A program made the position numbers and the translations under genes. 64,000 bases of DNA, taken from positions 224,001 to 288,000 of the forward strand of contig CAWCRS010000007.1 of assembly GCA_963798085.1 (NCBI GenBank). The letters are read 5' to 3'. This DNA comes from an uncultured Gemmatimonadales bacterium. Lineage in GTDB: Bacteria; Gemmatimonadota; Gemmatimonadetes; Longimicrobiales; RSA9. Positions 22,279-38,048 of this stretch are shown one piece after another. The first letter of the stretch is position 1. Every line of letters starts with the position of its first letter. The notes under the pieces are model-generated. The model saw nothing but the letters and a program-made list of their open reading frames with translations, was not told the origin of the DNA and did no database searches.

Positions 22279-24567
22279 CTAACCGACGACTTCGAAGACC
22301 GTCTCACTCTCCGCGCGTTCGCCCGTCTGCACACCGGTCACCGTGATGCGCATGCGGTAGCGGCCGGGCGGCAGGTCGGTGCCCAGGCGACGCAGTTCCT
22401 GCAGGGCTCCCGTGACGTCCGGTCGCGCGCGATCCTCGAAGCGCAGATCAATGTGCGGCGGGCCGCCGCCGAACAGGCGCTTCACGCTGCCCAGTGCGCC
22501 TCCGCCCTGCACGGGATCGACCGTGAGGTGAGTCCGGTAGGGCGCGTCCGCGGCCAGATTGTAGATCTCGTAGAAGAGTGTGAAGGGGTGGCCGGGCTGG
22601 AACCGGCGAGGCAGGGTCACGGCCAGCTTGAGGTCGCCGCGCTCCCAGTCCCCGGCGCTGTCGGGCGAGGCCAGCACCAGGTCACTCACCTGCAGGCCCG
22701 CACCCGTGTAGTCCTTGAGCCGTGTCGTGCCCGTGAAGACGCTGCCCGCGTCCACCACCGGGCTGCGCGCCACCACCCGATACACCGTGTTATCAGACGG
22801 CAGCACGGGCAGCGTGACGTGCGCGCGCAGGAAATCACCGGCATGCAGCGGCTGCGCCGTGGCGATGCGTACCAGTGTGTCGCGGCGCGTGACGTCGTCG
22901 GTCAGCGTATCCTGCAATATGATGGAGAGCGCCACGGGATACACGCGCCGGCCCTGCTCCTCGAGCGCGGCCGCGCCTTCGGCGGGAATCGCGAACGCAG
23001 CGGTGAGGTCGGTGCGGCCGAAGGGCGCGCGGAACGTGAACACGTCGAAGTGGAAGGGCAGTTCGCGGTCGTAGCGTGCCACGTACACGTCACTGGCCAG
23101 CGCCTGGCGCGCCTGGCGCCGGTACTCGGCGTCCACCGATTCCACCTCGGTGTGCACCATGCGCCGGATCTCGGTCTGGTCAATGACACGCGAGCCGGTG
23201 TTGAACGTCAGCAGGTCGGCGCGCAGCCGGGCGACGGCCGCCTGGTAGCGCGGCTCGAAGGCAGCCCGGTCTTCGATCAGGGAAATGACGGCGCGGTCGA
23301 AGCGCGCCTTGTCTTCGATGGGATCCACCGCCCCATCCAGCGCCTGCAGCAGGTCGCTGACCAGACTGTAGTCGCGGCTGCCGCGCAGCGCGACGAAATG
23401 AAACAGCTGGTTAGAGGTGCCGTCGGGTGCGCGGTAGATCCACGTCTCGTTGGGCAGCAGGCCATCGGAGCGCGTGCTCACCACGCGCTCGGGAAGACCG
23501 CGCTTGAGCAGCACCACACCGCGGTCGTCGAAGGGGCTGCCGCCCGTGGCGGTTTCGGCGAGCAGCACACCGCTGCCATTCACGCCCCGCCGCGAATTGC
23601 GCAGGTAGTCGCGGCGGGCGAGAGCCAGCCGGCGATAGTGTTCGGCCAGGCGCTCGGCCGGCGTAACACCGCTGTCAGCAGCACGCCGCTCCCAGAAGCG
23701 GTGCAGCCAGAAGCGGCGTCCGCTCAGGTCGGCATGCTCCCAGTCCGCGACTTCGGCCGCAGTGGCGATCACCCCGACGTCCTGGAACAGGCGCTCGGCG
23801 CTGGCCGCGTCCAGCGTGTCCACAGCGGCGAAGTAGGCGGCTGCACCGGCATCGTCGCGACCCGGCTGCAGGAGGAGCGCCTGCGCGCGCGCCACCAGCG
23901 TCGGCGCGCTGCCGCCTTCGTCCAGGGCAGCTTCCGCCTGGTGGTAGTCGCCGAGCGCCGTCTCCACCTCCGCCAGCGCACTGTTCACCTCGGGCGTAGC
24001 CTGGCCGTTGCGGCGCAGGCCCAGCAGTGCCTGCCTCGCCGCCACGATGTCGCCATGATCGCGGCCATCGTCCACCGCGAGCCGCGCCAGCAGCACGGCG
24101 GCGGGTGCGAAGAGCGAGTCCAGCTCCAGAGCGTCCTGCGCCGCCTTGCGCGCGCGCGATTTCGGATCCTTGCCCAGGATCTCGGCGAAGCTGTGCGTCA
24201 CCGTGATCCCGTTTTCCTGATTCAGCCTCGCCGCCGCCTCACCGGCATAGGCCAGCGCGAGTCCGTAATGCATCCACGTGACCCGCGGAAAGCGATCGGC
24301 ACCACGCTCGAATGCCTCGCGCGCCAGCTGCGCATCGGTGGCATCGTGCGTGACCTCGGCAATGCGCAGGCGAATGAGCCCACGCTCGATCAGCGGCTCC
24401 GGTGTCGTGGCCATGCCCGGCATGGGCAGCCGGCTCTGCAGCCGCTGCAAGGCGGGTACGTCGCTCAGCGCCCGCAGCGAATCGCGGTAGCTTGTCCATT
24501 CGCGCGTCTGCGCCGCCAGCGGAGCCGGCAGCAGGACGGCGAGCAGTATGGCATGAGTCAGCTTCAT
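22279..24567 (-). CDS. Exported TPR-like + GWxTD-domain protein with C-terminal Ig-like domain
   Basis: Signal peptide; Ala/Leu-rich helical repeats; FWERR..RLAEHYRRL..PFDDRGVVLLKRGLP (degenerate GWxTD); ETWIY; C-terminal LPPGRYRMRITVT beta-sandwich. Confidence 0.75.
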   Translation of the reverse strand: MKLTHAILLAVLLPAPLAAQTREWTSYRDSLRALSDVPALQRLQSRLPMPGMATTPEPLIERGLIRLRIAEVTHDATDAQLAREAFERGADRFPRVTWMHYGLALAYAGEAAARLNQENGITVTHSFAEILGKDPKSRARKAAQDALELDSLFAPAAVLLARLAVDDGRDHGDIVAARQALLGLRRNGQATPEVNSALAEVETALGDYHQAEAALDEGGSAPTLVARAQALLLQPGRDDAGAAAYFAAVDTLDAASAERLFQDVGVIATAAEVADWEHADLSGRRFWLHRFWERRAADSGVTPAERLAEHYRRLALARRDYLRNSRRGVNGSGVLLAETATGGSPFDDRGVVLLKRGLPERVVSTRSDGLLPNETWIYRAPDGTSNQLFHFVALRGSRDYSLVSDLLQALDGAVDPIEDKARFDRAVISLIEDRAAFEPRYQAAVARLRADLLTFNTGSRVIDQTEIRRMVHTEVESVDAEYRRQARQALASDVYVARYDRELPFHFDVFTFRAPFGRTDLTAAFAIPAEGAAALEEQGRRVYPVALSIILQDTLTDDVTRRDTLVRIATAQPLHAGDFLRAHVTLPVLPSDNTVYRVVARSPVVDAGSVFTGTTRLKDYTGAGLQVSDLVLASPDSAGDWERGDLKLAVTLPRRFQPGHPFTLFYEIYNLAADAPYRTHLTVDPVQGGGALGSVKRLFGGGPPHIDLRFEDRARPDVTGALQELRRLGTDLPPGRYRMRITVTGVQTGERAESETVFEVVG

Positions 24568-24822
24568 GGAGGCTTCCCTTCGCAGGGAACGCGCGGTCCG
24601 GCAACGAATCCGCAGTCTGCCGGTGCGCACCTTTACCCCTTCCCGGAGCGCGCGGTCCGACGCCGGCTACAGTGCACCACGCGCGCGCAGCGTCCGCATC
24701 AACCGGGTCCCGAAGCGCGGCCCGACACGACTGTTACGAGCAACCAGAGGCACAGCCGGGCAAAAGCGCAATACGCGTTCTGGCGATTCGCCCCGGCGGA
24801 CAACGATGTTCACAATAGTTGC

Positions 24823-24851
24823 TTGACAGTCTGCGCAGTTCCCCGTAATCT
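24823..24851 (+). promoter_or_regulatory. Sigma70 promoter of the TBDR-PorV operon
   Basis: Near-consensus TTGACA-17 nt-TAATCT in a locally AT-richer patch. Confidence 0.7.
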
Positions 24852-25027
24852 GGCCGCGCGCAAGAGAAGCATCACCGTTCCGAAAAGAGATCGTTACGAA
24901 GACCGGCGTCGAGACGCCCGCCATGCGGGCGCGCCATGCGTTTTCGACATCCGTCCGGCGGGACGCATCCGCCGGGCGCGCCACTGTTTCACCACCTTTC
25001 GCATCATCGCACCCAGGAGGATCCCCC

Positions 25028-28000
25028 ATGCTGCGTAAAGCGGTACAGCGACTCGCCACAGGCCTCGCCTGTACGCTGGTCCTGGTCGCTACGACCTGGA
25101 CCGGTGTTCGCGCGCAGGGCACGACCGGCAAGATCCAGGGTCGCGTCCTGGACTCGACTGGAAAGGCCGTACCTGCGGCTCAGGTCACCATCGAAGGCAC
25201 CACGTTCGGTAACCTGACCAACGACGACGGTTTCTACTTCATCAACGAAGTGCCGCCGGGGCTGGTGAACGTACGCGCGCAGAGCATCGGTTTCCGCGCA
25301 GTCGTGATTTCCCAGCAGCGCGTGCTCGCCGGCCAGACACTCACGCTGAACTTCACGCTGGAGGTGACGGCGGTCGAGCTGCAGGCGCTGGTCGTGACCG
25401 GCGAGCGCAACCCGCTCGTGCCGCGCGACCAGGTGTCGTCAAAGGCGATCATCACCGGTGAGAAGATCGATGAGCTGCCGTTCGACAACGCCACCAGCAT
25501 CGTGCTGTTGCAGCCCGGAGTGATCTCGACCAACTCGGGGCGCACCATCCGCGGCAGCCGGCCCGGTGAAGAGGCCGTGTATGTCGACGGCGTGCCCATC
25601 CGCCGCATCCGCACCGGTTCCACCGAGTCCTTCGATCTGCCCACGAACTCGCTGGCGCAGGTGGACGTCACGACCGGCGGCATAAGCGCGCGTTATGCGG
25701 ATGCGCAGTCGGGCGTGATCAACTTCGTTACCAAGACGGGCGGCCCCAAGTTCGGCGGCACGTTCGACCTGTTCACGGACATGCTCGGCCCCACCAACTG
25801 GTCGAGCGGATTCAACCGGGCGGAGCTGAGCTTCGGCGGGCCCATCCCGATCGTCAAGAACCTGACGTTCTTCTTCGGCGGCACGGCCCAGGGGCAGAAG
25901 TATGCCGGACTGAATCAGGGAATCGTCAACAGCCCGGGCTTCTACGTTGCGACGGGCGTGGACACCACGTTCCGGCTGGCGCGCAGCAGCCAGGTTTCCG
26001 GCCTGTCGGACAGCGTGGATGTCGCGGTGCCCAACTTCATCAAGTGGGACAACGGCAATCGCGCTCCCACCAACGTGGGCGACTCGTACAACTCGACAGC
26101 CAAGTTGTCCTACGGACTCCCGCGCGGCGGGCGCGTGGACCTGACGTATTACCGCAACCGCGATCAGAGCATCGGGCGGGGCCTGGGCAGCCTCTACAAT
26201 CCATATGCCTGGAACGGCAACTACTCGTCGGAGAACGTGCTCACACTGGGCACGTACTTCCTGATCAACCAGGCGCCGACACACCAGCTGGCGCTCGACC
26301 TCAAGGCCAGCTACCAGGCTGACTGGACGCAGTCGGGTGACATACAGCCCAATTATCTGCTGAACCATCTGGACCCGGCCTTCGGCTTCAACTTCTCCAA
26401 CCTGAAGTTCCTTGTGGACCCGAACGATTGGCCGGTCACCGACCTGCTGGTGAATCTGGCGCGCTCGGGCATTCTGCCGGCGGAATCGCTGCAGGTGCTG
26501 CCGAACCGGGCGGACCTGGGCTCCCGCCAGGGCGTGCAGGGTGTGAATACGTCGCTGCGGCTCAACCCCTACGGCATGCGCCAGAGCTGGTCCACATACG
26601 GCACCGGAAATACCGGCCAGTCGTGGACCAAGGAGAATCGCTGGTACTTCAGCGGCACGGCGGACTGGCAGCTCAACCGCTACAACCGCATGTGGATCGG
26701 CGGCGACATCACGATGGCGGATGACAAGGTGCAGAACGTGCCGCTCTACACCGGCACATCGATTCCGACCATGTACTCGCCCACGCGCGGCAGCCTGTAC
26801 GTCCAGAACCGTCTCGACATCGGCGACGTGGTGCTGGAAGGCGGATTGCGCTGGGACTACTTCGATCCCAATGGCTTCTTCCCCCGCGTGCCCGGTTACG
26901 TCTTCAATGTGCCGGACAGCCTCAAGGCGGACTTCCTGCGCTTCACTTCGGCGACCGGTCCGCTGGCCGATCGCGTGCAGTTGAATTCGGACTGCGGCGG
27001 CGCAGCCACGGCCGCACAGCGCACGAATTCCGCTGGCCAGGTGGTCTGCGAGGACAACTTCATCAAGGCATCGGTGAAGAAGGCGTTCGCGCCTCGCCTC
27101 GCGGTGAGCTTCCCGGTGACGCCGACGTCAACGTTCCGTTTCAGCTACTCACACAATACGCAGGTCCCGTCCCTGACGGGTGGCGGCAGCCTGTTCGGCT
27201 CCGCGTACACGGACCTGACCGGTGGCGCCAACACCAACACGACGTTCGGTCGTGACGTGGACATTCCGCGCACGGTGCTGTTCGAGGCCGGCTATCGTCA
27301 GGTGTTCGGTGGGTCCACCGTCGTGGACGCGGCGGTCTACTCCAAGACGACACGCAACAGCCTGACCTATCGCAAGCTGCCTTTCGAGGATCCCAAGATC
27401 CCGGGCCGTACCGTGTTCATCAATGTGCTGACCAACGCCGACTACTCGCTGGCGCGTGGTCTGGACCTGCGACTGGATCGTCGTTTCAGCGAGATCGCGG
27501 ACCTCTCGGTCAACTACTCGTTCGTGGACGCGCGCGGCACCGGCTCGGACCCCAACACCTACACGGGTCTGATCCTGCGGCGCTCGACGAACGTGGGTCT
27601 GTTCACGGGCCAGCCGACCGACCCGCCGGAGCTGCTGCTCACGCTCAACCAGAGCCGTGCGCACAACGTGGCGGGCACATTCTCGCTGCTGTTCCCCTCC
27701 GACTGGCACTCGGGCAGTGTCGCTAACACCGTCTTTGGCGACGTCGGCATCTTCGCCACCTTCCGACTCGCTTCCGGTCTGCCCTACACCCGCCTGGTGA
27801 ATGCGGGCAACGGCCAGACGGGCCCGCCCACCTTTGCCGGTCTGGTCGGCGTGCCCTCGGAGGAACTGAATGCCTCCCGCACACCGGGCTTCAAGACGCT
27901 CGACATGCGCATCCACCGGGGTTTCCGGGTGGGTGCCAAGCGCATGCGCGTGTTCGCCGACTTCCGCAACCCGCTGCACATCGCGAACACCAACTTCGTG

Positions 28001-28309
28001 TACATGGAGACCGGTGAGATCAACAACGCGCTGTACAAGACGGACTCGATCGATCCGCTGCTGCGCGATGCCACGCTGGACGGCAATGCCAACATCGACG
28101 ACTTCAACATCATGAAGGAGTCGCCGGACATTCCCATGAACAGGTACCTGCTGCTGCAGGCGGAAAAGCGTTTCGGCAATGGCGACGGCATCTTCACGGT
28201 CGACGAGCAGCGCAGGGCATTCGGATCGTTTTTCGATCTGTTCAACAACTCGCTGGGCTTCCGCAACGCGGACCGCTCGCTGCGGTTGGGCCTGGAGTTC
28301 GTGTTCTGA
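25028..28309 (+). CDS. TonB-dependent receptor with N-terminal carboxypeptidase-regulatory-like domain
   Basis: AGGAGG RBS, signal peptide, TTGKIQGRV, plug motifs IRGSRPGEEAVYVDG and TGGISARYADAQSGVINFVTK, APRLAVSFP, terminal LGLEFVF. Confidence 0.92.
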   Translation: MLRKAVQRLATGLACTLVLVATTWTGVRAQGTTGKIQGRVLDSTGKAVPAAQVTIEGTTFGNLTNDDGFYFINEVPPGLVNVRAQSIGFRAVVISQQRVLAGQTLTLNFTLEVTAVELQALVVTGERNPLVPRDQVSSKAIITGEKIDELPFDNATSIVLLQPGVISTNSGRTIRGSRPGEEAVYVDGVPIRRIRTGSTESFDLPTNSLAQVDVTTGGISARYADAQSGVINFVTKTGGPKFGGTFDLFTDMLGPTNWSSGFNRAELSFGGPIPIVKNLTFFFGGTAQGQKYAGLNQGIVNSPGFYVATGVDTTFRLARSSQVSGLSDSVDVAVPNFIKWDNGNRAPTNVGDSYNSTAKLSYGLPRGGRVDLTYYRNRDQSIGRGLGSLYNPYAWNGNYSSENVLTLGTYFLINQAPTHQLALDLKASYQADWTQSGDIQPNYLLNHLDPAFGFNFSNLKFLVDPNDWPVTDLLVNLARSGILPAESLQVLPNRADLGSRQGVQGVNTSLRLNPYGMRQSWSTYGTGNTGQSWTKENRWYFSGTADWQLNRYNRMWIGGDITMADDKVQNVPLYTGTSIPTMYSPTRGSLYVQNRLDIGDVVLEGGLRWDYFDPNGFFPRVPGYVFNVPDSLKADFLRFTSATGPLADRVQLNSDCGGAATAAQRTNSAGQVVCEDNFIKASVKKAFAPRLAVSFPVTPTSTFRFSYSHNTQVPSLTGGGSLFGSAYTDLTGGANTNTTFGRDVDIPRTVLFEAGYRQVFGGSTVVDAAVYSKTTRNSLTYRKLPFEDPKIPGRTVFINVLTNADYSLARGLDLRLDRRFSEIADLSVNYSFVDARGTGSDPNTYTGLILRRSTNVGLFTGQPTDPPELLLTLNQSRAHNVAGTFSLLFPSDWHSGSVANTVFGDVGIFATFRLASGLPYTRLVNAGNGQTGPPTFAGLVGVPSEELNASRTPGFKTLDMRIHRGFRVGAKRMRVFADFRNPLHIANTNFVYMETGEINNALYKTDSIDPLLRDATLDGNANIDDFNIMKESPDIPMNRYLLLQAEKRFGNGDGIFTVDEQRRAFGSFFDLFNNSLGFRNADRSLRLGLEFVF

Positions 28310-28320
28310 TGGAGGCGAGA

Positions 28321-28352
28321 TCCGGGAGCGCGTGCGCAAGCGCGCTCCCGGA
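28321..28352 (+). other. Intergenic stem-loop without U-tract
   Basis: Perfect 12-bp stem TCCGGGAGCGCG/CGCGCTCCCGGA around a GCAA-containing loop. Confidence 0.7.
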
Positions 28353-28396
28353 CCGGAGCGGATGACGAAATTCGACGACTAGCTCAGGGAGCAATC

Positions 28397-31300
28397 ATGA
28401 ATCGTGAGACTCGTGGGGGCCTCGCCCGGCGCACGGGCCTGGCTGCCCTGTCGGCGATGCTGCTGCTGCCGACGTTTGTGGCAGGGCAGAGTGTGGCCGA
28501 GAAATACCGTCAGGCGCGCGAACGCTCGAGCCCGTTCAACCTGTCCAGCTCGGCCAACTCGGTGCTGCAGGTGAACAAGTTCCAGTGCGGCCTGTCCAAC
28601 AAGGGCTTCGTCTGCACCAATGTATTCGACAGCCCCACCGGCGGTGGTGGCTTCTGGCCCACCGGCACGGTAGACCAGTACATGTTCCGGTCCGGCGGCC
28701 AGATCTTCGGCATCATTCCCGGATCCAAGGCGGACAATCCGTGGGCGGGTGACACGGTGGGCGCCTTCTTCAACGAGGGCACCGGCCAGCGCGGCCACGG
28801 CACGCCGGTAACAGAGATTTACAATTCGCTGGATCCGAACGATCTGGCGAACTGGCCGGATGTCGGTTCGGTGGACCACTTCCCGGAAGCCACCGCCTGG
28901 GTGACGGACACGTCACTGTTCAACGACGTGCTGATCGGCCGCAAGGCGGCGTCGCAGCAGGACACCTGGCAGCTGTACTGGGACGGCGATCCCGGCCCCA
29001 CCCTGGGCCGCAACCATCCCATGGGCATCCTGGTGGAGCAGCGGTCGCTGGCCTGGAACTATCCGTCCGGCAATGAAGCGATCATCTACTTCATCTACAA
29101 ATTCACGAACGTCACCAACAACCCGTACTTCCAGCAGCTGAACGAGGCCAAGTTCTTCGGCGGCGCGAACCAGTTGCCGGACGGCGGCTGGCGGATTGAT
29201 TCGATCTACGTCGCCGTCGACTCTGATGCGGACGTGGACGCGGACAAGGCGGACCAGAACTACGCGACCGGCATTCTGCCGTTCAACCTCGGTATCGCGT
29301 ACCTGAACTCTTTCTACGAGCCCGCGTTCGACTATCCGCCGTCGGAGTTCCACGCGCCCTTCTTCCCGGCAGCGGTGGGCATCGTGGGCGTGAAGTTCCT
29401 GAAGAGTCCGACCAATCCGGCGACAGGCAAGGAAGTAGGTCTGACCAGCCTGTCGCTGCACACCAACGGCGGCGCCTTCCCGGATCCGGCCAACGTCCAG
29501 CGCGGCTGGCGCTACGTCTCGCTGAACGTGGACGCCGGCAAGGGCGATCCCAACTGCACGTTCAGCATCAATGAGGTCAAGGCGAGACGCGCCTGCTATC
29601 TCGGCCAGACGGCGAGCGACGTGCGCTTCTTCATTGGCTCGGGTCCGTTCTCGCTGGATCCCGGCCAGAGCGCCACGGTAGCCGTGGCCATGTACGCGGC
29701 CGCCACAGTTGCGACCAGTCAGATCCAGATCACGGCGGACAACAAGCCGGGCATTCCTTCGATTCACCCCGGATGCTTCGGCGATCCGATCCGTCCCATC
29801 GAGGTGGGCTCCGGCTGGGTGAAGACCAACACCTGCCCGAGCGATCCTGCGGATGCCGTCGACCAGCATGACGTCCAGGTCGTGACGGGCTCGCTGCTGG
29901 GCAAGGGCCTGGTGGCGCAGGCCATTTTCGACAACAAGTTCCTCCTGGGCTTCGCGCCCGAGACGCCCACCTTCCAGCTGGTGCCGGGCAACAACCAGAT
30001 CACGGTGGTCTGGGAGCCCAGCAACACGGAGAAGGAGGGTGATCCGTTCTTCGTCGCGGCAGGCGATCCTAACAGCCCGTTGTACGATCCCAACTACCGC
30101 CAGTTCAATGTGGAAGGCTACCGCATCTACCGCGGCACCACGCCGGGCAACCTCCATTTGATCGCGCAATTCGACAAGAAGGGCTCGGTCTTCGAGGACA
30201 ACCTGTGCGTGACGGATCCCACGTTCGTTGTCGGCGATACCTGCCCCGGCTCGACGGAAGTCGATCTGACGGGCGCCTTCGTGCAGTATCCGCCCGGAGG
30301 TGTCGTGCGGCTGGCGGACGGGACGCCCCTGGTGGTCAAGGCGGACACGGCGCTCGCGGCCGAGATCGCGGCGGGCAACGGGCAGCCGCTCAGCGACACG
30401 GGCATCCCCTACGCCTACGTTGACAAGGATGTGCGCAACGGCTTCCAGTACTTCTACAAGGTGACGGCGTTCGACATCAACAGCCTGAATTCCGGTCCCA
30501 GCTCGCTGGAATCGGCGGGCGGCTCGAAGAACACGACACCGCGCGCCGCCGCCACCTCACTGGCCGACGCGCAGTTCGCGGTGGGTCTGTTCGGACGCGG
30601 TAACACGCCATTAACGGGTCAGGCGCCCAGCATCGACCCGGTCACCGGTGAGTTCAGCGGACCGGCGGCGCCCACGGGCCTGATGACGGGTGAGTTCCTG
30701 CCCTTCGCGGCGCAGCTGCTGCCCGCGGGTACCAAGGAGATCCGCATCGACAGCGTGGTGCCCGGATACTATCCGAACGGCGTGATCGCGACGTTCTACG
30801 TGACCGCCGACGGCCAGCACACCTCAGTCCAGTTCAGCAACGGCAACGTGAGCGGCGGGCACACCGATCCCGAGACCCACGATCTGCCCGTGGTTTCCGT
30901 GGCGTCGGATCCGACGATCCGGCAGCAGCTGATCGCCAAGGGTGTGGACGCGCCGGCATCGGCGGGCAGCCTGACGGCGCAGCTGGCATCGGAGCGGCCG
31001 CACTGGGGGTCGGTAGACAGCGACTGGGCGTTCAAGCAGCCGGGCTTCTGGGATCCGTATGATCCACCGACCACACTGCCCGGCGGCTCGCGCTGGTTCA
31101 CGGGCGCGAACGAAGCGACGAAGGATCCGACGGCGGGGTACGCGGCCGGGTTCATTCAGGGCTACACGATTTTCAAACCCGAGCCCTATCAGACCGTCGC
31201 ACCGGCGCCTACTGGGGCGACCGCCCTGACCGCCTTCCGCGGCCAGAGCGGTGACATCATGCGCCGCTTCTACGGCACCACGTTCGGCGCGCACCGCGCC

Positions 31301-32113
31301 GCGGACATGAAGTTCTACTGGAGCACCGCCGGCCTGGACAGCGTGATTGACGTCACGCACAACGTGACCGTGCCGTTCGCCGGCGCCGCACGAGCCAGTT
31401 TCGGTTTCCTGACGGACAACGGTGACAAGGACGGGAAGCTCACCTACGGCGACTTCTACTACATCCCCGGGTTCGAGAGTACGGGCAACATCGGCTCGTT
31501 CTCGCAGAACAGTCCGGCGCCGCTGAGCCGCCAGCCCGTATCGATGCCGGTCGACGTTACGGGTGACCTGCAACCTGACGGCAATGGCTTCGGCATCTAC
31601 ATTGCGGGCGAGCCCTTCCTGTTCATGGGCCCGGTTCCCACCAGTGGCGTATGGACGCTGCGCACGTACGCGGGCACCGTGACGCAGAACAGCGCCGGTC
31701 AGTACAGCTTCACCCCGTACGGAGCGTTCCCGGCCGTGCCGGGTCTGCGCTTCGTGGTCAACGTGACGGCGCCGGCCACGATCGTTGCGGATCAGGCGGA
31801 TCTGTCCAAGGTGCACACGGTGCCGGACCCCTACTACGCGGTCAGCCAATTCGAACTGGGTCCATCCTCGAAGGAGCTGCATTTCATCAACCTGCCGGCC
31901 AAGGCGACCATCCGCATTTACAGCATGAGCGGCGTGCTCGTCGACATCCTGAATCACGACAATGTGTCCGGCAGCGGCCAGGAGCCGTGGGACCTGCGCA
32001 ACCGCAGCGGTCAGTTCGTGGCCAGCGGTGTGTACTTCTACCACCTGTCGACGCCCGATGGTAAGACGGCGATCGGCAAGTTCACGGTGATCAACTCGGG
32101 CTTCGCCCGTTAA
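28397..32113 (+). CDS. Large secreted protein with Fn3-like domain and T9SS-type/FlgD-like C-terminal sorting domain
   Basis: Signal peptide; Fn3-like QITVVWE..EGYRIYR..YVDKDVRNGFQYFYKVTAFD; C-terminus VPDPY..FINLP..TIRIYSMSG..WDLRNRSGQFVASGVYFYH..GKFTVI. Confidence 0.8.
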   Translation: MNRETRGGLARRTGLAALSAMLLLPTFVAGQSVAEKYRQARERSSPFNLSSSANSVLQVNKFQCGLSNKGFVCTNVFDSPTGGGGFWPTGTVDQYMFRSGGQIFGIIPGSKADNPWAGDTVGAFFNEGTGQRGHGTPVTEIYNSLDPNDLANWPDVGSVDHFPEATAWVTDTSLFNDVLIGRKAASQQDTWQLYWDGDPGPTLGRNHPMGILVEQRSLAWNYPSGNEAIIYFIYKFTNVTNNPYFQQLNEAKFFGGANQLPDGGWRIDSIYVAVDSDADVDADKADQNYATGILPFNLGIAYLNSFYEPAFDYPPSEFHAPFFPAAVGIVGVKFLKSPTNPATGKEVGLTSLSLHTNGGAFPDPANVQRGWRYVSLNVDAGKGDPNCTFSINEVKARRACYLGQTASDVRFFIGSGPFSLDPGQSATVAVAMYAAATVATSQIQITADNKPGIPSIHPGCFGDPIRPIEVGSGWVKTNTCPSDPADAVDQHDVQVVTGSLLGKGLVAQAIFDNKFLLGFAPETPTFQLVPGNNQITVVWEPSNTEKEGDPFFVAAGDPNSPLYDPNYRQFNVEGYRIYRGTTPGNLHLIAQFDKKGSVFEDNLCVTDPTFVVGDTCPGSTEVDLTGAFVQYPPGGVVRLADGTPLVVKADTALAAEIAAGNGQPLSDTGIPYAYVDKDVRNGFQYFYKVTAFDINSLNSGPSSLESAGGSKNTTPRAAATSLADAQFAVGLFGRGNTPLTGQAPSIDPVTGEFSGPAAPTGLMTGEFLPFAAQLLPAGTKEIRIDSVVPGYYPNGVIATFYVTADGQHTSVQFSNGNVSGGHTDPETHDLPVVSVASDPTIRQQLIAKGVDAPASAGSLTAQLASERPHWGSVDSDWAFKQPGFWDPYDPPTTLPGGSRWFTGANEATKDPTAGYAAGFIQGYTIFKPEPYQTVAPAPTGATALTAFRGQSGDIMRRFYGTTFGAHRAADMKFYWSTAGLDSVIDVTHNVTVPFAGAARASFGFLTDNGDKDGKLTYGDFYYIPGFESTGNIGSFSQNSPAPLSRQPVSMPVDVTGDLQPDGNGFGIYIAGEPFLFMGPVPTSGVWTLRTYAGTVTQNSAGQYSFTPYGAFPAVPGLRFVVNVTAPATIVADQADLSKVHTVPDPYYAVSQFELGPSSKELHFINLPAKATIRIYSMSGVLVDILNHDNVSGSGQEPWDLRNRSGQFVASGVYFYHLSTPDGKTAIGKFTVINSGFAR

Positions 32114-32119
32114 CGACTC

Positions 32120-32151
32120 TGCGCCGGGGCCGCGCAAGCGGTCCCGGCGCA
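32120..32151 (+). other. Intergenic GNRA-capped stem-loop
   Basis: TGCGCCGGGGCCGC-GCAA-GCGGTCCCGGCGCA, 14-bp stem with one G-U pair. Confidence 0.7.
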
Positions 32152-32173
32152 CACCTCACGAGGAGAGGATCCG

Positions 32174-33325
32174 ATGAGGATGATTCGCAGGACGGTAACG
32201 GGGCTCGCCCTGTTGGCCATGACGGCGGGATCGGTGCTCGCACAGAGTCAGCCGAACACGATCCAGCTGAAGAAAGAAAACTCCGGTGTGGGCACCACAT
32301 CGGCGGAGTTCCTGCTGATGGGTGCGGGTGCGCGCGGCATGGCGCTGGGTCCCGCATTCTCGGCACTCACGCGCGATGTCGAAGCGCTCTATTACAACCC
32401 TGCCGCGCTGCCGCTCATGGAGGGCGCGGAGGCGAGGGTCAGCCTGATGCCGTATTTCGCGAACACGAATTACCTGTGGGCAGGGGCGGCACTGCCCATA
32501 CGCGGCGGCGAGTACGGCTTCGGCCTTTCCATCGCTAACTTCGGGTTTTCGGAACAGCCTGTTTACACCGAAGTCGATCAGAATAACGACAGCCAGTTGA
32601 CGTACGGCGTGTCGGAGACGGTGATCGGCCTGTCGTTCGCGCACTCGTTCATTGACCGGTTCAGCGGCGGTCTCACGGTCAAGTGGATCTCGGACCAGCT
32701 GGGCCAGTCCACCGCTACGGGCGCCGCGCTCGATATCGGTACCAACTATCACTCGGAAATCGGCGGCCGGCCCATTTCCATGTCATTCGTGATCCAGAAC
32801 CTGGGCACGACACTGAAGCATACGGGCAGCGGGCTGGACTTCAATTCCTACCCGCAGAGCGAGGACCCGGCGTTCCCGGTACGCGCGCTGGATCCGTCCC
32901 CCGCGCGCTTCGAGGCTGCAGCGTCGCCGCTGCCGGTCGTGTTCCGCGTGGGCCTGGCCTACGATCTGATGTCGTCGGCCAGCAACCGGCTTTCCATGCT
33001 GGGCGAGTTCAACGAGTTCTACAACAACAGTCCCAGCTTCGGCTTCGCGTCCGAGTACCAGTGGGCGCCGACGGAATCGCCGCTCAAGGTGGCGCTGCGC
33101 GGCAGCTACGCGTACCAGCCGGACAACAATCTGACGTCGACCGAACAGAACAACTTCGGTAACGCAGCCACCTCCGTGAAGAACGAAGGTCTGGACGGAC
33201 TGACCGTAGGAGGCGGGCTGCGCTATCACCTGGGCACGTACGAAGTGGCCGCGGATTACGCGTACCGTCACTTCGGCGTGCTGGGCGCGCGCAATGTGTT
33301 CACGGTGGGCTTCGCGTGGCATTGA
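32174..33325 (+). CDS. PorV/PorQ-family outer-membrane beta-barrel
   Basis: Signal peptide, then GTTSAEFLLMGAGARGMALG..ALYYNPAAL (FadL/PorV-type hatch), ALDIG, QNLG, LPVVFRVG, C-terminal aromatic strand. Confidence 0.85.
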   Translation: MRMIRRTVTGLALLAMTAGSVLAQSQPNTIQLKKENSGVGTTSAEFLLMGAGARGMALGPAFSALTRDVEALYYNPAALPLMEGAEARVSLMPYFANTNYLWAGAALPIRGGEYGFGLSIANFGFSEQPVYTEVDQNNDSQLTYGVSETVIGLSFAHSFIDRFSGGLTVKWISDQLGQSTATGAALDIGTNYHSEIGGRPISMSFVIQNLGTTLKHTGSGLDFNSYPQSEDPAFPVRALDPSPARFEAAASPLPVVFRVGLAYDLMSSASNRLSMLGEFNEFYNNSPSFGFASEYQWAPTESPLKVALRGSYAYQPDNNLTSTEQNNFGNAATSVKNEGLDGLTVGGGLRYHLGTYEVAADYAYRHFGVLGARNVFTVGFAWH

Positions 33326-33369
33326 GCGACGCTCCCGTAATGATGCGCCAGGCATAAAGGCAGGATTCG

Positions 33370-34770
33370 ATGTGGGCAGCAGCAGCAGGGCTGGTAACGG
33401 CGGCGGCCATGGCCGCCGCCGGACCGGGCACAGGTGCGGATCAGCTGCAGATCACGCTGTATCGTTCGTGGTATCCGCCCAATGTCACCGTGGTCAACGG
33501 GCTGTTCCGCGTGGATGGTGCGATGCTGGGCACGGGCGACGCATGCGAGTACCACGTGCGGCTGTCCGTGGATGATTCGGCGGGCACCCGCCTGGTGAAC
33601 AATGAATGGGACGGCCACTGTCCGGCCGCTGTCGATGGCAAGCCCTCGGCGGCACTGGAGACCTTCCAGTTCGCTGTGGTGCCCTCGCACTACACGGTGC
33701 AGGTGACGGTGGACGCGAAGAACGTCGCACAGCCGATGCGACTCTCGGCGCGCGTGCCGCTGGAAAGCCTGGCGCTGTCGGCGCGCACGTCCGACCTGAT
33801 TCTGGCGACGAAGGTCGGCTGGGTGGATTCGACCAGCAATGTGCAGTGGACGATCAAGAAGAACAAACTGGGCATTGCGGCCGCCTCGGAAGCCGTGGCG
33901 GGGGAGACGAATCCGTACATCTCCTACTATCTCGAGATCTATCCCCGCGAGATGGGGCCCATGAACGGCACACTGGTGGGTGTGATTCGCAGACCTGACG
34001 GCAAACAGATCGCGCGACTGGATCTGCAGAAGGTGCAGCAGGTGACAGAGGCGCGGCCGCTGGCGGGCAATCTGTCGCTTGCCGGGCTGGCGCCGGGCGA
34101 CTACGTGCTGGAAGCCCGGCTGGAGCTGTCCGACACCGTGCTGGTGCGCACGCACGCGTTCCGCATGGAAGGCAGGGATTTCGCGGAGCAGGCGCCGGGC
34201 GCGCCCACGACGGGCTACTTCGCCTCACTGTCCGACGAGCAGCTCTCGCAGCTCTTCGATCCGGTGTCGGCGCTGCTGCAGAAGCAGTCCGACCGCGATC
34301 TCTACGGGCGTCTCAATCCGGATGGCCGGCGCCGCTTCCTGGCGCAGTACTTCGGCGTGACGCAGCCATCGGCCGGTGGGCAGGCTAACAATGCGTTGGA
34401 CATGTACCTGGCGCGTGTCCAGTTCGTGAACAGGGAATATGCCGGGCGCGGCGGGCAGGCCGGCTGGACCACGGACCGTGGCCACATCTACCTGCTGCGC
34501 GGTGCCCCGCAGTCGAAGGTGGCGAAGCCTCTGCCGCCGGGTGGCTCTTCGCCGTACGAGATCTGGCAGTATACGTCGGCGCCGGGCTACTTCTATCTGT
34601 TCATCGACGAATCAAGGATCAACAGCTACCGGTTGATCGTAAGCAGTGATCCGAACGAGTCGACGCTGCCCGACTGGGACCGGCGACTCAGTGACGAAGC
34701 CGTGGAGGACATCCGGCGCATGGGGATCCGCCTGCCCAACGTGTCGGGCGGCGGCCTGCTCCAGAACTAA
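33370..34770 (+). CDS. GWxTD-domain protein with N-terminal Ig-like domains
   Basis: YLARVQFVNREY..AGWTTDRGHIYLLRGAP..PYEIWQY..YLFID; preceded by LAPGDYVLEARL beta-sandwich; signal-like N-terminus. Confidence 0.88.
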   Translation: MWAAAAGLVTAAAMAAAGPGTGADQLQITLYRSWYPPNVTVVNGLFRVDGAMLGTGDACEYHVRLSVDDSAGTRLVNNEWDGHCPAAVDGKPSAALETFQFAVVPSHYTVQVTVDAKNVAQPMRLSARVPLESLALSARTSDLILATKVGWVDSTSNVQWTIKKNKLGIAAASEAVAGETNPYISYYLEIYPREMGPMNGTLVGVIRRPDGKQIARLDLQKVQQVTEARPLAGNLSLAGLAPGDYVLEARLELSDTVLVRTHAFRMEGRDFAEQAPGAPTTGYFASLSDEQLSQLFDPVSALLQKQSDRDLYGRLNPDGRRRFLAQYFGVTQPSAGGQANNALDMYLARVQFVNREYAGRGGQAGWTTDRGHIYLLRGAPQSKVAKPLPPGGSSPYEIWQYTSAPGYFYLFIDESRINSYRLIVSSDPNESTLPDWDRRLSDEAVEDIRRMGIRLPNVSGGGLLQN

Positions 34771-34839
34771 CGCGCTCTTTCGAGACTGACGGGATCCACA
34801 AGGGAACTGCCCCGGAGCCGGGGCGCATGGAGGAACGAC

Positions 34840-35217
34840 ATGTCGAAGCGGATCGGTCTTCTGGCAATGCTCGGAGTGGCGGGTCTGGTCGCAATGGCAG
34901 CCTGCGACAACAACCCGCTTTCCAAGGACCGCGACAAGGTGACGCGTCTGGATCTCAACCCGAGTTTTGCCAACGTCAAGGTGAATGACTCGACGTTCGT
35001 GACGGCCATTGCGCTCAATCGCAACGGCGAGCCGACCGGAGACGCGGTGCAGGGCACCGCGTGCGATGGCAAGATCACGATCAAGAATGATCCCACGCGC
35101 ACCAACTTCGAGCCGCCGGAGCGGTGGATCGTTCATGGCGTGACCGCTGGTCAGTCGTGCGTCAATGTGAGTTCGGCGGGCGTCACGTCATCCGTCGTGA
35201 TCAACGTCGTTCAGTAG
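34840..35217 (+). CDS. Small lipoprotein with Big_2-like Ig domain
   Basis: GGAGG RBS, lipobox MAAC, beta-rich body ending GVTAGQSCVNVSSAGVTSSVVINV. Confidence 0.8.
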   Translation: MSKRIGLLAMLGVAGLVAMAACDNNPLSKDRDKVTRLDLNPSFANVKVNDSTFVTAIALNRNGEPTGDAVQGTACDGKITIKNDPTRTNFEPPERWIVHGVTAGQSCVNVSSAGVTSSVVINVVQ

Positions 35218-35392: not shown

Positions 35393-36769
35393 TCACTCGC
35401 GGCGGCGGCATTCCTCCAGTGCATCGAAGAGTCGCTCGAAGTGCTCGGGCCTGTGCGCGGCGGTGGCGCAGAGTCGAAGACGTGCCTGACCGGGTGATAC
35501 GGCGGGATACACGACAGCGGAAACGAACACACCCATGGCAAGCATCCACCGCGCCCAGCGATAGGCTCGCCATTCGTCACCCAGAATCAGCGGCACGACC
35601 GGCGACGTCGAGGCGCCGATCTCGAACCCGCGTTCGCGCAGACCGCTGCGCAGCACCTGCTCATTGCGGTGCAGGCGCTGCACGTGCTCAGGCTCGGCCG
35701 AAATCACGCGCAATGCCTCGAGAACAGCGGCCGCATTTGCCGGCGTCATCGCAGCCGAGAAGATGTAGGGAGCCGAGCCGTGCTGAATGTAGATCTTGAG
35801 GCCCGGCGCGCCGGAAACGAACCCGCCCGACGAAGGTATGCCCTTGGACAGCGAGCCGGTCACGATATCGATGCGGCGAGGATCGATCTTCTGCGCTTCG
35901 CACACGCCGCGGCCGGTCGCGCCGATCGCGGCAATGGAGTGCGCTTCGTCGACCAGCAGGAAAGCGCCGTAGCGCTCCTTGATCTGGATGAGTTCTTCAA
36001 GCGGTGCCTGGTCGCCATCCATGCTGAACACCGCATCAACGGCCACCAGGATGCGCCGTGCGCCCCGGCTCTTCGCCTGGCGCAGGCGGCGCTCGAGGTC
36101 TTCCATGTCATTGTGACGGAAGCGACGCGTATCGCAGCCTGCCATGCGCGCGCCGTCCTGAATGCTCTGGTGCGCGTACTGGTCGAGAATGGCGAAGTCG
36201 CCGGGACCGAAAAGCGACGTGATGGCAGCGAGGTTCGCGTCGTACCCGGAGCCGAAGGTGGCGGCGGCCTCATGACCGAGAAACGTCGCCAGCTCATGCT
36301 CGACTTCGTGATGCAGCTCCAGGGTGCCCGTCAGGAGTCGAACACCACCGGTGGAAGTGCCCAGCTTCTCGACCATGCGCGCGGTTGCCGCCTTGATGCG
36401 CGGGTGTCCGGCAAGGCCGAGATAGCTGTAGGTGGAGAACAGCAGAAGCGGCTCGCCCAGCACTTCGATGTCGGGACCGCAATGTGTCTGCAGCGGCAAC
36501 TGATAGGTATAGAGCGAATGAGGCAGGCCCGCTGCGAACAGCTCGAACCAGCGCCGCACTGCGGGGGTGTCGAGCAGCGAACCTGGCTCGATCATGTCAT
36601 CGACACTGCGACCGTCGAAGAAACCGCTGAAGGGATCGCGTGTGTAGCCTTCGAGCGCGTCCGTCAGGCGCGCGGGAGGCGCACATTCGGCCGCGCCAGG
36701 TGCGCCGCTGCCAGGCTTCGCCGAAGCGCGCATCGCCGCAGCGCCGTCGCCGTCGGTCATGCCGGGCAT
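35393..36769 (-). CDS. PLP-dependent alpha-oxoamine synthase (BioF/Kbl/serine palmitoyltransferase family)
   Basis: YSYLGL, GGVRLLTGT, AHQSI, FRHND, DAVFSMDGD, VDEAHS, GSLSK, ARLR. Start is uncertain. Confidence 0.88.
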   Translation of the reverse strand: MPGMTDGDGAAAMRASAKPGSGAPGAAECAPPARLTDALEGYTRDPFSGFFDGRSVDDMIEPGSLLDTPAVRRWFELFAAGLPHSLYTYQLPLQTHCGPDIEVLGEPLLLFSTYSYLGLAGHPRIKAATARMVEKLGTSTGGVRLLTGTLELHHEVEHELATFLGHEAAATFGSGYDANLAAITSLFGPGDFAILDQYAHQSIQDGARMAGCDTRRFRHNDMEDLERRLRQAKSRGARRILVAVDAVFSMDGDQAPLEELIQIKERYGAFLLVDEAHSIAAIGATGRGVCEAQKIDPRRIDIVTGSLSKGIPSSGGFVSGAPGLKIYIQHGSAPYIFSAAMTPANAAAVLEALRVISAEPEHVQRLHRNEQVLRSGLRERGFEIGASTSPVVPLILGDEWRAYRWARWMLAMGVFVSAVVYPAVSPGQARLRLCATAAHRPEHFERLFDALEECRRRE

Positions 36770-36827
36770 GGGCAGGATGGGCGAACGCGCAGGCGGGTTC
36801 GATGCCGGACCCGCTCCGTTATCGCCA

Positions 36828-38048
36828 TCAGCCGGCCGCGAAGCGGAACGCGACCTTGACGGATCGCTGGCCGCCTTTGTCGAGGGCGGCTGCGAGTGCC
36901 GCACGATACTCCTCCAGGGCAAAGGTGTGCGTCACCATGCCGAGCCCGGCAAAGGTGTCGCGATGCAGAAGATCGAGCGCGGCCCGGTAGATCTCACATG
37001 ACTCGCCGCGCCAGGGCGCCAACCCGTACGCAAAGATACCGGCCACCGTCAGCTGGCGATACCAGACGCGCGTCCAGTCCGCCGTCAGACGAGCGGCCGC
37101 ACCCACGAGTACCACGCGACCGCCTTCGCGGCAGAGCGCCAGCGTATCCTGCACGGTGCGCGACGTGCCCACCGTGTCGAATATCAACGACGGCCCGCCC
37201 TCGACGAAGCGAGCTGCGAGCGTGGGCTTGTACGCGCGTGCCCCCGGCAACTGCGCAGCCCAGTGATACGCCTCATTGCGCGAGCGCAGCATTGTATCCG
37301 CGCCCGCCTGCTCCGCGCGCTCGAGCTGGAAATCGTAACGCCCGAGAACCGCAATGCCGCCCTGCCACCCCAGTGCGCGCAGGGAGCTGACAGTCAGCAG
37401 ACCGATCGTACCGGCGCCGATCACCAGAATCGTGTCGTCCGGGTGTGGCGGGTGCAGCAAGACCGGCCGCAACGCCGATGCCAGTGGGTCCGTGAGTAAC
37501 GCGACGTCGTCCGACAGACCATTCGTCGCGTGCAACTGGCTGCGGTGAGCGACGAAGTAACGCGACCATCCGCCGCCCGTCCGCGGGCAATACCCGATCA
37601 TGGGCCCGCGGCCCGGCGTGCCGTCGGTGGTTCGGCGGCACAGCCCGTATTCGCCGCGGGCACAGGCACTGCACGGGGGTGTCAGCTCACGCTGCGCGCA
37701 CGCGAGCATCGGATTGATGACGACGTGGTCGCCGACCGACCACTCCGTTACGGCCTGCCCCTTCTCAACGACCACACCCACGTTCTCGTGACCGAACGTG
37801 AACGGGTAGGCGCCGAACGGCTCGAGCGTAAAGCTGTCGTGCGCAGTCACCGCGGCCAGGTCGCTGCCGCAGATGCCGCTCAGCAGAGTCTCGATGCGTA
37901 CCCACTCCGGTCCCGGCAGTGCCGGTGGCTCCACATCATCCAGGGTCACACAGCCGAGTGGCGAAACCGGAAAGGCGGGGCGACCCGACCCTGCCCAGCG
38001 CGTGAGCAGATAGCGCACCGGCCGGTAGTGGAAGCGGATCGCGAGCAC
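36828..38048 (-). CDS. Zn-dependent medium-chain dehydrogenase
   Basis: GICGSDL, GHENVG, structural-Zn Cys cluster, GAGTIG. Confidence 0.9.
   Translation of the reverse strand: MLAIRFHYRPVRYLLTRWAGSGRPAFPVSPLGCVTLDDVEPPALPGPEWVRIETLLSGICGSDLAAVTAHDSFTLEPFGAYPFTFGHENVGVVVEKGQAVTEWSVGDHVVINPMLACAQRELTPPCSACARGEYGLCRRTTDGTPGRGPMIGYCPRTGGGWSRYFVAHRSQLHATNGLSDDVALLTDPLASALRPVLLHPPHPDDTILVIGAGTIGLLTVSSLRALGWQGGIAVLGRYDFQLERAEQAGADTMLRSRNEAYHWAAQLPGARAYKPTLAARFVEGGPSLIFDTVGTSRTVQDTLALCREGGRVVLVGAAARLTADWTRVWYRQLTVAGIFAYGLAPWRGESCEIYRAALDLLHRDTFAGLGMVTHTFALEEYRAALAAALDKGGQRSVKVAFRFAAG

Follow-up and report, generated by a model that had tools for sequence, protein, structure and literature searches.

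Several surface systems bear on the locus analyzed here. In Bacteroidota, type A cargo of type IX secretion systems (T9SS) use a general PorV, while type B cargo have dedicated anchoring carriers (PMC12635249, PMC12618676, PMC9143113). In the type B examples SprB-SprF and Fjoh_3952-3951-3950 of F. johnsoniae and PG1035-PorP-PorE of P. gingivalis, the cargo adjoins its own 14-strand carrier barrel, and type B carrier genes are often followed by porE (PMC12618676, PMC9143113). PorU and PorZ retain their C-terminal domains (CTDs), and of Gemmatimonadetes it is said that T9SSs "may also be present" there (PMC11285876). Release from SprA takes energy from GldLM (PMC10994853), and PG0534/PorF is an essential TonB-receptor-like T9SS component (PMC5445135, PMC8754138). 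Melioribacter and Ignavibacterium have SprA, PorV, and Plug and no other T9SS protein (PMC11705866), and one study treats SprA as shared across the Fibrobacteres-Chlorobi-Bacteroidetes (FCB) group and BamG as FadL-like (PMC12611786). Here, we analyze a window of 64,000 nucleotides from an uncultured bacterium of the Gemmatimonadota (Longimicrobiales; contig CAWCRS010000007.1, positions 224,001 to 288,000), in which consecutive genes encode a TonB-dependent transporter (TBDT), a secreted "passenger" with a T9SS type A CTD, and a barrel of the PorV/PorQ family. This cassette is real, conserved, and undescribed. A literature search, from which subscription papers were largely absent, turned up no publication that deals with the cassette or with GWxTD proteins, in keeping with an earlier sequence-only reading of the window that knew of no functional characterization; the available portions of 10.1101/031039 and PMC5317091 contain nothing bearing on it.

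Each of the six open reading frames that the sequence-only reading had proposed at 22279..35217 was found in its place. The features of the locus are as follows.

22279..24567, minus strand: GWxTD-1, 762 amino acids (aa), with a signal peptide, a probable tetratricopeptide repeat (TPR) region, and a GWxTD domain (TIGR04514)
24823..24851, plus strand: candidate promoter of the sigma70 type, TTGACA-N17-TAATCT, lying 205 bp upstream of the TBDT gene
25028..28309, plus strand: TBDT, 1093 aa, assigned from Pfam domains
28397..32113, plus strand: passenger, 1238 aa, with a signal peptide, a beta-supersandwich, an FN3/immunoglobulin (Ig)-like region, a variable middle, and a type A CTD
31787..32095, plus strand: T9SS type A CTD of the passenger, residues about 1131-1233, assigned from TIGR04183 and superposition on the PorZ CTD
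32174..33325, plus strand: PorV/PorQ-family barrel, 383 aa (NF033709), the candidate dedicated carrier and anchor
33370..34770, plus strand: GWxTD-2, 466 aa, with a signal peptide, two Ig-like domains, and a GWxTD domain at residues 296-401 (TIGR04514)
34840..35217, plus strand: lipoprotein, 125 aa, with one Ig-like domain and a visible lipobox Cys

The five plus-strand genes are separated by 87, 60, 44, and 69 bp, in that order. The window's genome is denoted G000, its contigs are given C-numbers, and the loci compared with it are given L-numbers. Named homologs assign G000 to the Longimicrobiales within the Gemmatimonadota. Given that G000 is 90% complete and contains many split genes, claims of absence from this genome alone are limited.

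As in the type B pairs, the cargo would be retained on the surface and a periplasmic protein would be encoded next (PMC12618676, PMC9143113). The cassette differs from these pairs in its type A CTD, its PorV/PorQ-family barrel, and the TBDT within the unit, and its third gene encodes a GWxTD protein rather than the peptidoglycan-binding PorE. An uncleaved type A CTD on a PorV/PorQ-family barrel, as proposed here, is also the arrangement of PorZ-PorQ and PorU-PorV, and the PorZ CTD superposes on that of the passenger (PMC11285876). However, the passenger matches PorZ over the CTD only (34.1 bits, cut-off 260) and has a supersandwich in place of beta-propellers, and unlike the PorU-PorV/PorZ-PorQ attachment complex, the window's class has no sortase. 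The likeness to SusC-SusD consists of a TBDT with an N-terminal extension, a surface partner gene directly after it, and multi-copy cassettes among catabolic genes in Glassbacteria; by contrast, the TBDT is not SusC and the partner is an all-beta secreted CTD protein of 1238 aa, not a TPR lipoprotein. PorF is, by description, likewise a TonB-dependent-receptor-like barrel tied to the T9SS (PMC5445135), but it serves as one general component, about 92 kDa in size, whereas the cassette TBDT is cassette-bound and multi-copy. The partial T9SS of Melioribacter and Ignavibacterium shares the pairing of SprA and PorV without other T9SS proteins, and the passage reporting it names no cassette, cargo, mechanism, or Gemmatimonadota (PMC11705866). 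In its workings, the cassette would resemble a type B cargo-carrier pair to which an importer in the style of SusCD has been added, but it belongs to neither group. Our preferred reading, with a probability of roughly 0.55, is that SprA exports the passenger, which remains attached to its own barrel and supplies the TBDT as a lipoprotein-free counterpart of SusCD.

Gene order was compared in three sets of loci. On the passenger side, 40 loci picked from passenger search matches contained 42 passenger genes of over 1000 aa, with the TBDT gene directly upstream in 36/42 and the PorV gene directly downstream in 36/42. The seven exceptions were one contig end, one truncated TBDT, and five passengers outside the triplet (L023, L024, L031, L038, and L040); two of these five lie beside a full cassette, one lies upstream of a TBDT, and two are alone. 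On the barrel side, a query built from cassette barrels gave 79 loci, whose titles read Gemmatimonadota or Glassbacteria except for one genome that is titled archaeon; many are paralogs from few genomes and some repeat the passenger-side set. Here, a CTD protein was encoded directly upstream of PorV in 73 of 76 testable loci, and a TBDT before it in 51/52. The third set comprised 50 metagenome loci found from a Stygiobacter-named homolog, for which taxonomy is not given; on these Ignavibacteria-type contigs the TBDT lay upstream in 30/34 and PorV downstream in 34/38. The gene order read from the window is therefore kept as a TBDT-passenger-barrel triplet in all three sets.

This triplet is the core unit, and GWxTD-2 and the lipoprotein are add-ons: the GWxTD gene and the Ig lipoprotein gene were gained in the class Gemmatimonadetes, and the triplet itself is also present in Glassbacteria and on Ignavibacteria-type contigs. 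The triplet duplicates as a unit, with paralogous cassettes retaining all three genes. Among 73 triplets, 35 of the 50 well-supported splits in the TBDT tree recur in the passenger tree, and nearest paralogs agree across genomes in 165-169 of 218 comparisons (49 expected). A second, divergent cassette was observed in L157, L164, L171, and L047, encoding a TBDT, a CTD protein of 1285-1439 aa, a PorV-family barrel, and a small barrel of 234 aa; most of the genomes that carry it had been missed when searching for the passenger.

No Pfam family matched the passenger, and its profile gave no match below E 0.13 against PDB sequences. The proposal that it bears a CTD is borne out both by TIGR04183, which it passes narrowly over residues 1162-1230 (24.5 bits, cut-off 23), and by superposition on the PorZ CTD (5m11; Z 12.9, rmsd 2.2, 92 residues aligned, 25% identity). 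PorZ was also ranked top by Foldseek for the AlphaFold2 model of the passenger, which covers residues 42-1238 (102 sequences in the alignment, pLDDT 92.4, pTM 0.79). A basic residue stands near the C terminus in 101 of the 102 aligned sequences (K in 67, R in 34); this alignment column count replaced a strict tail regular expression that matched 8 of 41 CTDs. When scanned at E 0.01, NCBIfam listed only type A and PorV/PorQ models, and neither a type B CTD nor PorP/SprF. Mean conservation is 0.47 in the middle of the protein versus 0.62-0.68 elsewhere, the head and CTD being better conserved.

The passenger head (about residues 50-517) is predicted to be a beta-supersandwich of the mutarotase type. 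Its best structural match is a GH15-type N-terminal domain (Z 19.0, rmsd 3.1, 251 residues aligned), and it resembles the non-catalytic domains of GH15, GH65, and GH94 enzymes as well as galactose mutarotases. Homologs of the head are named from WOR-3, Zixibacteria, Calditrichia, and Ignavibacterium, and look-alikes of the passenger in the Atlas are hypothetical proteins of Zixibacteria and Fidelibacterota. Assignment as a glycoside hydrolase was rejected, as the matches were confined to the N-terminal supersandwich of GH15/65/94-type enzymes and included no catalytic barrel. Assignment as SusD was also rejected: the Pfam scan of the locus was blank for SusD and the model is mostly beta, in agreement with the initial statement that no SusD partner is encoded here. 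Elsewhere in G000 are a supersandwich homolog of 434 aa without a CTD (C3:481881-483185, 83.8 bits), a 145-aa protein made up of no more than a signal peptide and a CTD (C7:1548935-1549372), and a 1197-aa CTD protein with propeller-like and Ig-like repeats, as judged by eye, that adjoins no barrel or TBDT (C7:1872957-1876550).

The barrel passes the PorV/PorQ-family model NF033709 (135.4 bits, cut-off 90) and falls below the equivalog cut-offs of NF033710 (56.1 versus 250) and NF033711 (79.7 versus 220). Its dedication to the passenger, as first proposed, is upheld by duplication, each duplicated cassette retaining its own barrel, and this is telling because a housekeeping PorV exists as well. 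The latter gene lies in a conserved era-porV-prfB-lysS region (L168, which is G000 C7:1592600-1593573, and L156, L158-L163, L166, and L170); it is frameshifted in the G000 assembly, and in L166 a true porU (627 bits) lies directly upstream of it. A further observation concerns L066:9450-13262 (G000 C7:17449-21261, minus strand), in which an S8 peptidase-CTD protein reads in frame into a PorV-like barrel with no TBDT alongside. The PorV-like part has its own signal-peptide-like segment. This reading frame represents either two genes between which a stop was lost or a fusion of cargo and carrier that occurs naturally.

If the small barrel were instead a FadL-type lipid transporter, or a lipoprotein anchor like BamG, itself a FadL-family barrel holding a lipoprotein (PMC12611786), it would be unrelated to the CTD. 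A weak match to Toluene_X (PF03349, E 0.031) points that way, but scores 13.2 bits against a cut-off of 29.7, and against the PDB the barrel profile prefers PorV (3.7e-16) to the FadL-type 3dwo (0.29) by 15 orders of magnitude. The assignment as FadL was rejected, and the original placement in the PorV/PorQ family rather than among ordinary FadL transporters stands. No BamG chain appeared among the PDB profile matches listed at E up to 5, the presence of a BamG entry in the library being unconfirmed. Considering also that a CTD gene is directly upstream in 73/76 loci and that the lipoprotein is limited to one class, this explanation is very improbable.

The TBDT contains an N-terminal CarboxypepD_reg domain, a plug (PF07715) and a barrel (PF00593), the last two above the Pfam cut-offs in agreement with its initial identification, and a C-terminal Phe. 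Its profile matches FepA/PfeA/Cir structures at 1e-19, and the single sequence gave no match to the PDB at 0.01. The plug is ordinary in 29/29 aligned TBDTs. A segment that, as judged by eye, resembles a TonB box is likewise aligned in 29/29. SusC was rejected as an identity (TIGR04056, 30.5 bits versus a cut-off of 368.25); the transporter belongs to one distinct subfamily, scoring 1018 bits as compared with ≤510 for the other TBDTs of G000. In 8 distinct loci, tonB or exbB lies directly upstream of the TBDT gene.

These features bear on the possibility that the passenger acts from a dedicated barrel as an adhesin, a scaffold, or a sensor and that the TBDT is merely co-regulated with it and makes no contact. 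The passenger is a large beta protein, multi-Ig in makeup and variable in its middle, orphan passengers exist, the S8 peptidase-CTD and PorV pair of G000 provides a cargo-barrel pair without a TBDT, and the type B cargo that dedicated carriers hold are adhesins. However, the TBDT is kept in 51/52 PorV-anchored cassettes, through repeated duplication and across phyla, and belongs to the one distinct subfamily. We consider an adhesin unlikely and infer that the passenger and TBDT are partners.

To place the cassette among T9SS components, 151 Gemmatimonadota genomes were surveyed, G000 included; kin among them are not independent. G000 encodes SprA at C2:30500-36787 (TIGR04189, 459 bits versus a cut-off of 200), and has three additional PorV-like genes as well as two additional CTD proteins that exceed the cut-off. 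The passenger was present in 64/151 genomes and SprA in 120/151. All 64 passenger-bearing genomes had SprA, and 0 of the 31 SprA-negative genomes had the passenger. A distance of 10-23 kb separates the cassette from a downstream sprA in 26 relatives, counting displayed pairs on one contig only. Among 80 passenger-negative genomes, a strong PorV-family match (E<1e-17) was found in 54/56 with SprA and 2/24 without, a count that left out 7 of the 31 SprA-negative genomes. As an observation on its surroundings, sprA is divergent from lptF/lptG in 17/17 loci (L049-L065; G000 C2:30500-39736 and 15 other genomes), only lptG being called beside it in L050; comEA and pilB-pilT-pilC are often next in these loci.

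PorU was found in 0/136 genomes of the window's class and, by the same search, in 15/15 genomes of the other classes, which serve as an internal control. In G000, searches for GldL, GldM, GldN, and PorU gave no match other than CTDs. GldK/L/M/N were found in 0/151 genomes (GldK at E 1e-45), although this search had no positive control and diverged forms may therefore escape it; a GldM search of one Bacteroidota record (W01, with sprA and porU) also gave no match. Of the complete canonical T9SS that the sequence-only reading had envisaged elsewhere in the genome, SprA and PorV are thus present and PorU and GldK/L/M/N are not found. The locus is a cargo locus of a reduced T9SS and not a stand-alone exporter, as the presence of SprA in G000 and in 64/64 passenger-bearing genomes contradicts the stand-alone system that had been entertained.

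The same co-occurrence weighs against the related suggestion that the TBDT-like barrel itself exports the passenger as a stand-alone secretion system. Although sprA is unlinked to the cassette in G000 (C2 versus C7) and no motor genes were found, no passenger-bearing genome lacks SprA, the plug is ordinary in 29/29, and a folded protein of 1200 aa with a CTD suits the SprA route, so that export by the TBDT is hardly credible.

A further proposal gives the TBDT a PorF-like role in export, in which it would relay TonB-ExbB-ExbD energy to pull the barrel and passenger off SprA without GldLM. It would reconcile the lack of GldK/L/M/N matches in 151 genomes with SprA in 120 of them, given that release needs energy, and there is precedent in the TonB-dependent-receptor-like PG0534/PorF, which is essential for the P. 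gingivalis T9SS (PMC5445135); the three MotA/ExbB-family genes of G000 all fall to loci of other kinds, namely TonB, Tol-Pal, and flagellar ones. By contrast, no TBDT adjoins two further CTD cargoes or three further PorV-like genes in G000. Moreover, 56 SprA-positive genomes have no passenger match, 54 of them with a strong PorV and some carrying the divergent cassette, and paralogous cassettes lie among catabolic genes. An energizing role for the TBDT is accordingly rather improbable. Slightly less probable still is that the TBDT, passenger, and barrel form one complex in which TonB-ExbB-ExbD force would first extract the passenger from SprA and then drive import.

For the preferred reading, in which the anchored passenger feeds the importer, the analysis shows the gene content, the folds, the synteny, and the dependence on SprA across genomes; the steps below are inferences from these. 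Sec would carry the passenger over the inner membrane and the protein would fold in the periplasm (step 1). The type A CTD would then enter the SprA translocon encoded elsewhere, and the adjoining PorV-family barrel, rather than the housekeeping PorV, would catch it (step 2). Because the class has no PorU sortase, the CTD would remain uncut and the barrel would therefore be a permanent surface anchor, like that of PorZ on PorQ or of type B cargo on PorP/SprF (step 3). We regard these three steps jointly as very probable. The supersandwich head would bind a solute that derives from a polymer, with a glycan or glycopeptide as the likeliest kind, and pass it to the co-encoded TBDT for import with TonB-ExbB-ExbD energy, so that the job of SusD would be done by a secreted protein and not a lipoprotein (step 4); this is on balance probable. 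Lastly, GWxTD-2 would most likely be a periplasmic scaffold on the barrel or the TBDT, at the gene position that porE occupies in operons of type B, and the lipoprotein would be an accessory resembling SusE (step 5), both of which are tentative suggestions that we hold doubtful.

The gene neighborhood offers clues to function. Among downstream neighbors, mostly of Glassbacteria cassettes, sugar-catabolic genes made up 17/53 as compared with 7/70 control genes (p 0.003); 53 of 56 neighbors and 70 of 84 controls were scanned, the controls excluding three edge fragments and one region that lay close to a cassette. Around Ignavibacteria-type cassettes, 25 hand-picked neighbors included FG-GAP CTD proteins, M23 peptidases, a SIS-domain protein, and GHL10. 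Directly downstream of the Glassbacteria cassettes L106, L113, L114, and L123, there are recurrent GDSL-like or TPR-rich proteins with lengths of 727-773 aa. True SusD genes occur elsewhere in G000 (5 matches).

Several results weigh against the reading of the passenger as an anchored feeder of the TBDT. When the neighbors are limited to enzymes (glycoside hydrolases, polysaccharide lyases, carbohydrate esterases, sulfatases, and sialidases), the counts are 9/53 versus 6/70 (p 0.18), and the neighbor categories were assigned by hand among loci that are kin. The window's own neighbors are not glycan genes, and the five-gene form in the class has housekeeping neighbors. YidC, too, has a supersandwich fold (Z 12.1), and for that reason the fold does not prove sugar binding. 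The margin over TIGR04183 is only 1.5 bits, with most passenger homologs under cut-off. At least five passenger homologs lie outside any triplet, and congruent TBDT and passenger trees are expected from linkage alone. Finally, step 2 has no known power source, given that the GldLM motor needed in Bacteroidota was not found here.

The two GWxTD proteins that had been recognized at the locus both exceed the TIGR04514 cut-off of 28 (GWxTD-1, 32.1 bits; GWxTD-2, 61.3 bits). GWxTD proteins are not specific to the T9SS, because they occur in 132 of the 151 phylum genomes, SprA-negative ones included; in family f4, the median copy number is 4 with the passenger (44 genomes) and 1 without (30 genomes). 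A homolog of GWxTD-1 in L078 matches TPR families. Full-length paralogs of GWxTD-1 occur on C8 and C3, away from cassettes; at least five paralogs were observed in total, three of them frameshift-split (C8:420012, C3:454075, C10:15311-17057, C1:436060-438121, and C3:1027793-1029851). A GWxTD-1 gene is near the cassette in 2/40 passenger-anchored and 8/79 PorV-anchored loci. Outside the window it is divergent from the TBDT only in L009, of the same family, and of the 10 barrel-side loci with GWxTD-2, 8 have it downstream in convergent orientation. The divergent gene had been counted as part of the module, a view that this lack of conservation overturns; GWxTD-1 is a loosely linked accessory and not a core part.

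GWxTD-2 follows the barrel in 27/35 passenger-anchored and 10/65 PorV-anchored cassettes, and no GWxTD match was found in the 50 Ignavibacteria-type loci; the role of assembly factor first suggested for GWxTD proteins is conjectural. The protein is presumably periplasmic. Its model (pLDDT 84.7) comprises two Ig domains and a helical and alpha/beta GWxTD domain. Whole-model fold searches returned Ig-fold matches only (Z up to 11.4) and nothing for the GWxTD domain, and a search of this domain against the Atlas gave no usable match, which is no proof of a new fold. The idea that the C-terminal part is BamE/SmpA-like drew no support from the searches and was dropped.

The lipoprotein proposed as Ig-like keeps its lipobox Cys; the Ig assignment holds by way of the orthologue in L009, which is 47% identical and has Big_2, and not by the 125-aa protein itself, for which no family matched. 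A lipoprotein-type gene follows GWxTD-2 in 24/28 loci, as judged by eye, and the 17 lipoproteins scanned had PPC in 7 and Big_2 in 1. The window lipoprotein is the shortest form of a variable Ig/PPC lipoprotein.

Upstream of the TBDT gene, a perfect TTGACA at 24823 is followed after 17 nt by TAATCT (3/6 match), and TTGACA recurs ≤330 bp upstream of the TBDT in 17/24 relatives, followed by CATATT in 16 of these. Given this recurrence, the candidate promoter is probably real. A promoter scan of the locus reported 0 promoter-like sites, so that of the "one strong promoter" first described the promoter survives as a candidate and "strong" is overstated. The cassette's neighbors in the window include an anthranilate synthase, a hydantoinase-like protein, and a pyridoxal phosphate-dependent acyltransferase (35393-36922, minus strand), the last with best matches to BioF, Kbl, and serine palmitoyltransferase models, all under cut-off. 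A putative protein glycosyltransferase resembling TMEM260 (PF11028) is encoded 4 kb from the locus (window 15867-18320, minus strand), and in each of L037, L084, and L144 a homolog is encoded upstream of the cassette; this protein could glycosylate the Ig-rich surface proteins.

If the TBDT, passenger, and barrel acted as one complex, this would represent an ancestral, TonB-powered type IX secretion without GldLM in FCB phyla outside Bacteroidota, and a third class of TBDT surface partner. SprA occurs without a detectable motor in 120/151 Gemmatimonadota genomes, though SprA release reportedly needs energy. This motor question is testable in cultured Gemmatimonadota and Ignavibacteria, for which the passenger is a natural reporter. 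Type A CTDs here would have dedicated carriers, as compared with the one general PorV of the published scheme. If the preferred reading of an anchored passenger feeding its TBDT is true, the cassette would be a second general way to give a TonB-dependent importer a surface binding protein, with T9SS export and CTD anchoring replacing the SusD lipoprotein in several FCB phyla. Uptake loci of this kind, built on a family without a Pfam entry, would be invisible to searches based on SusCD.

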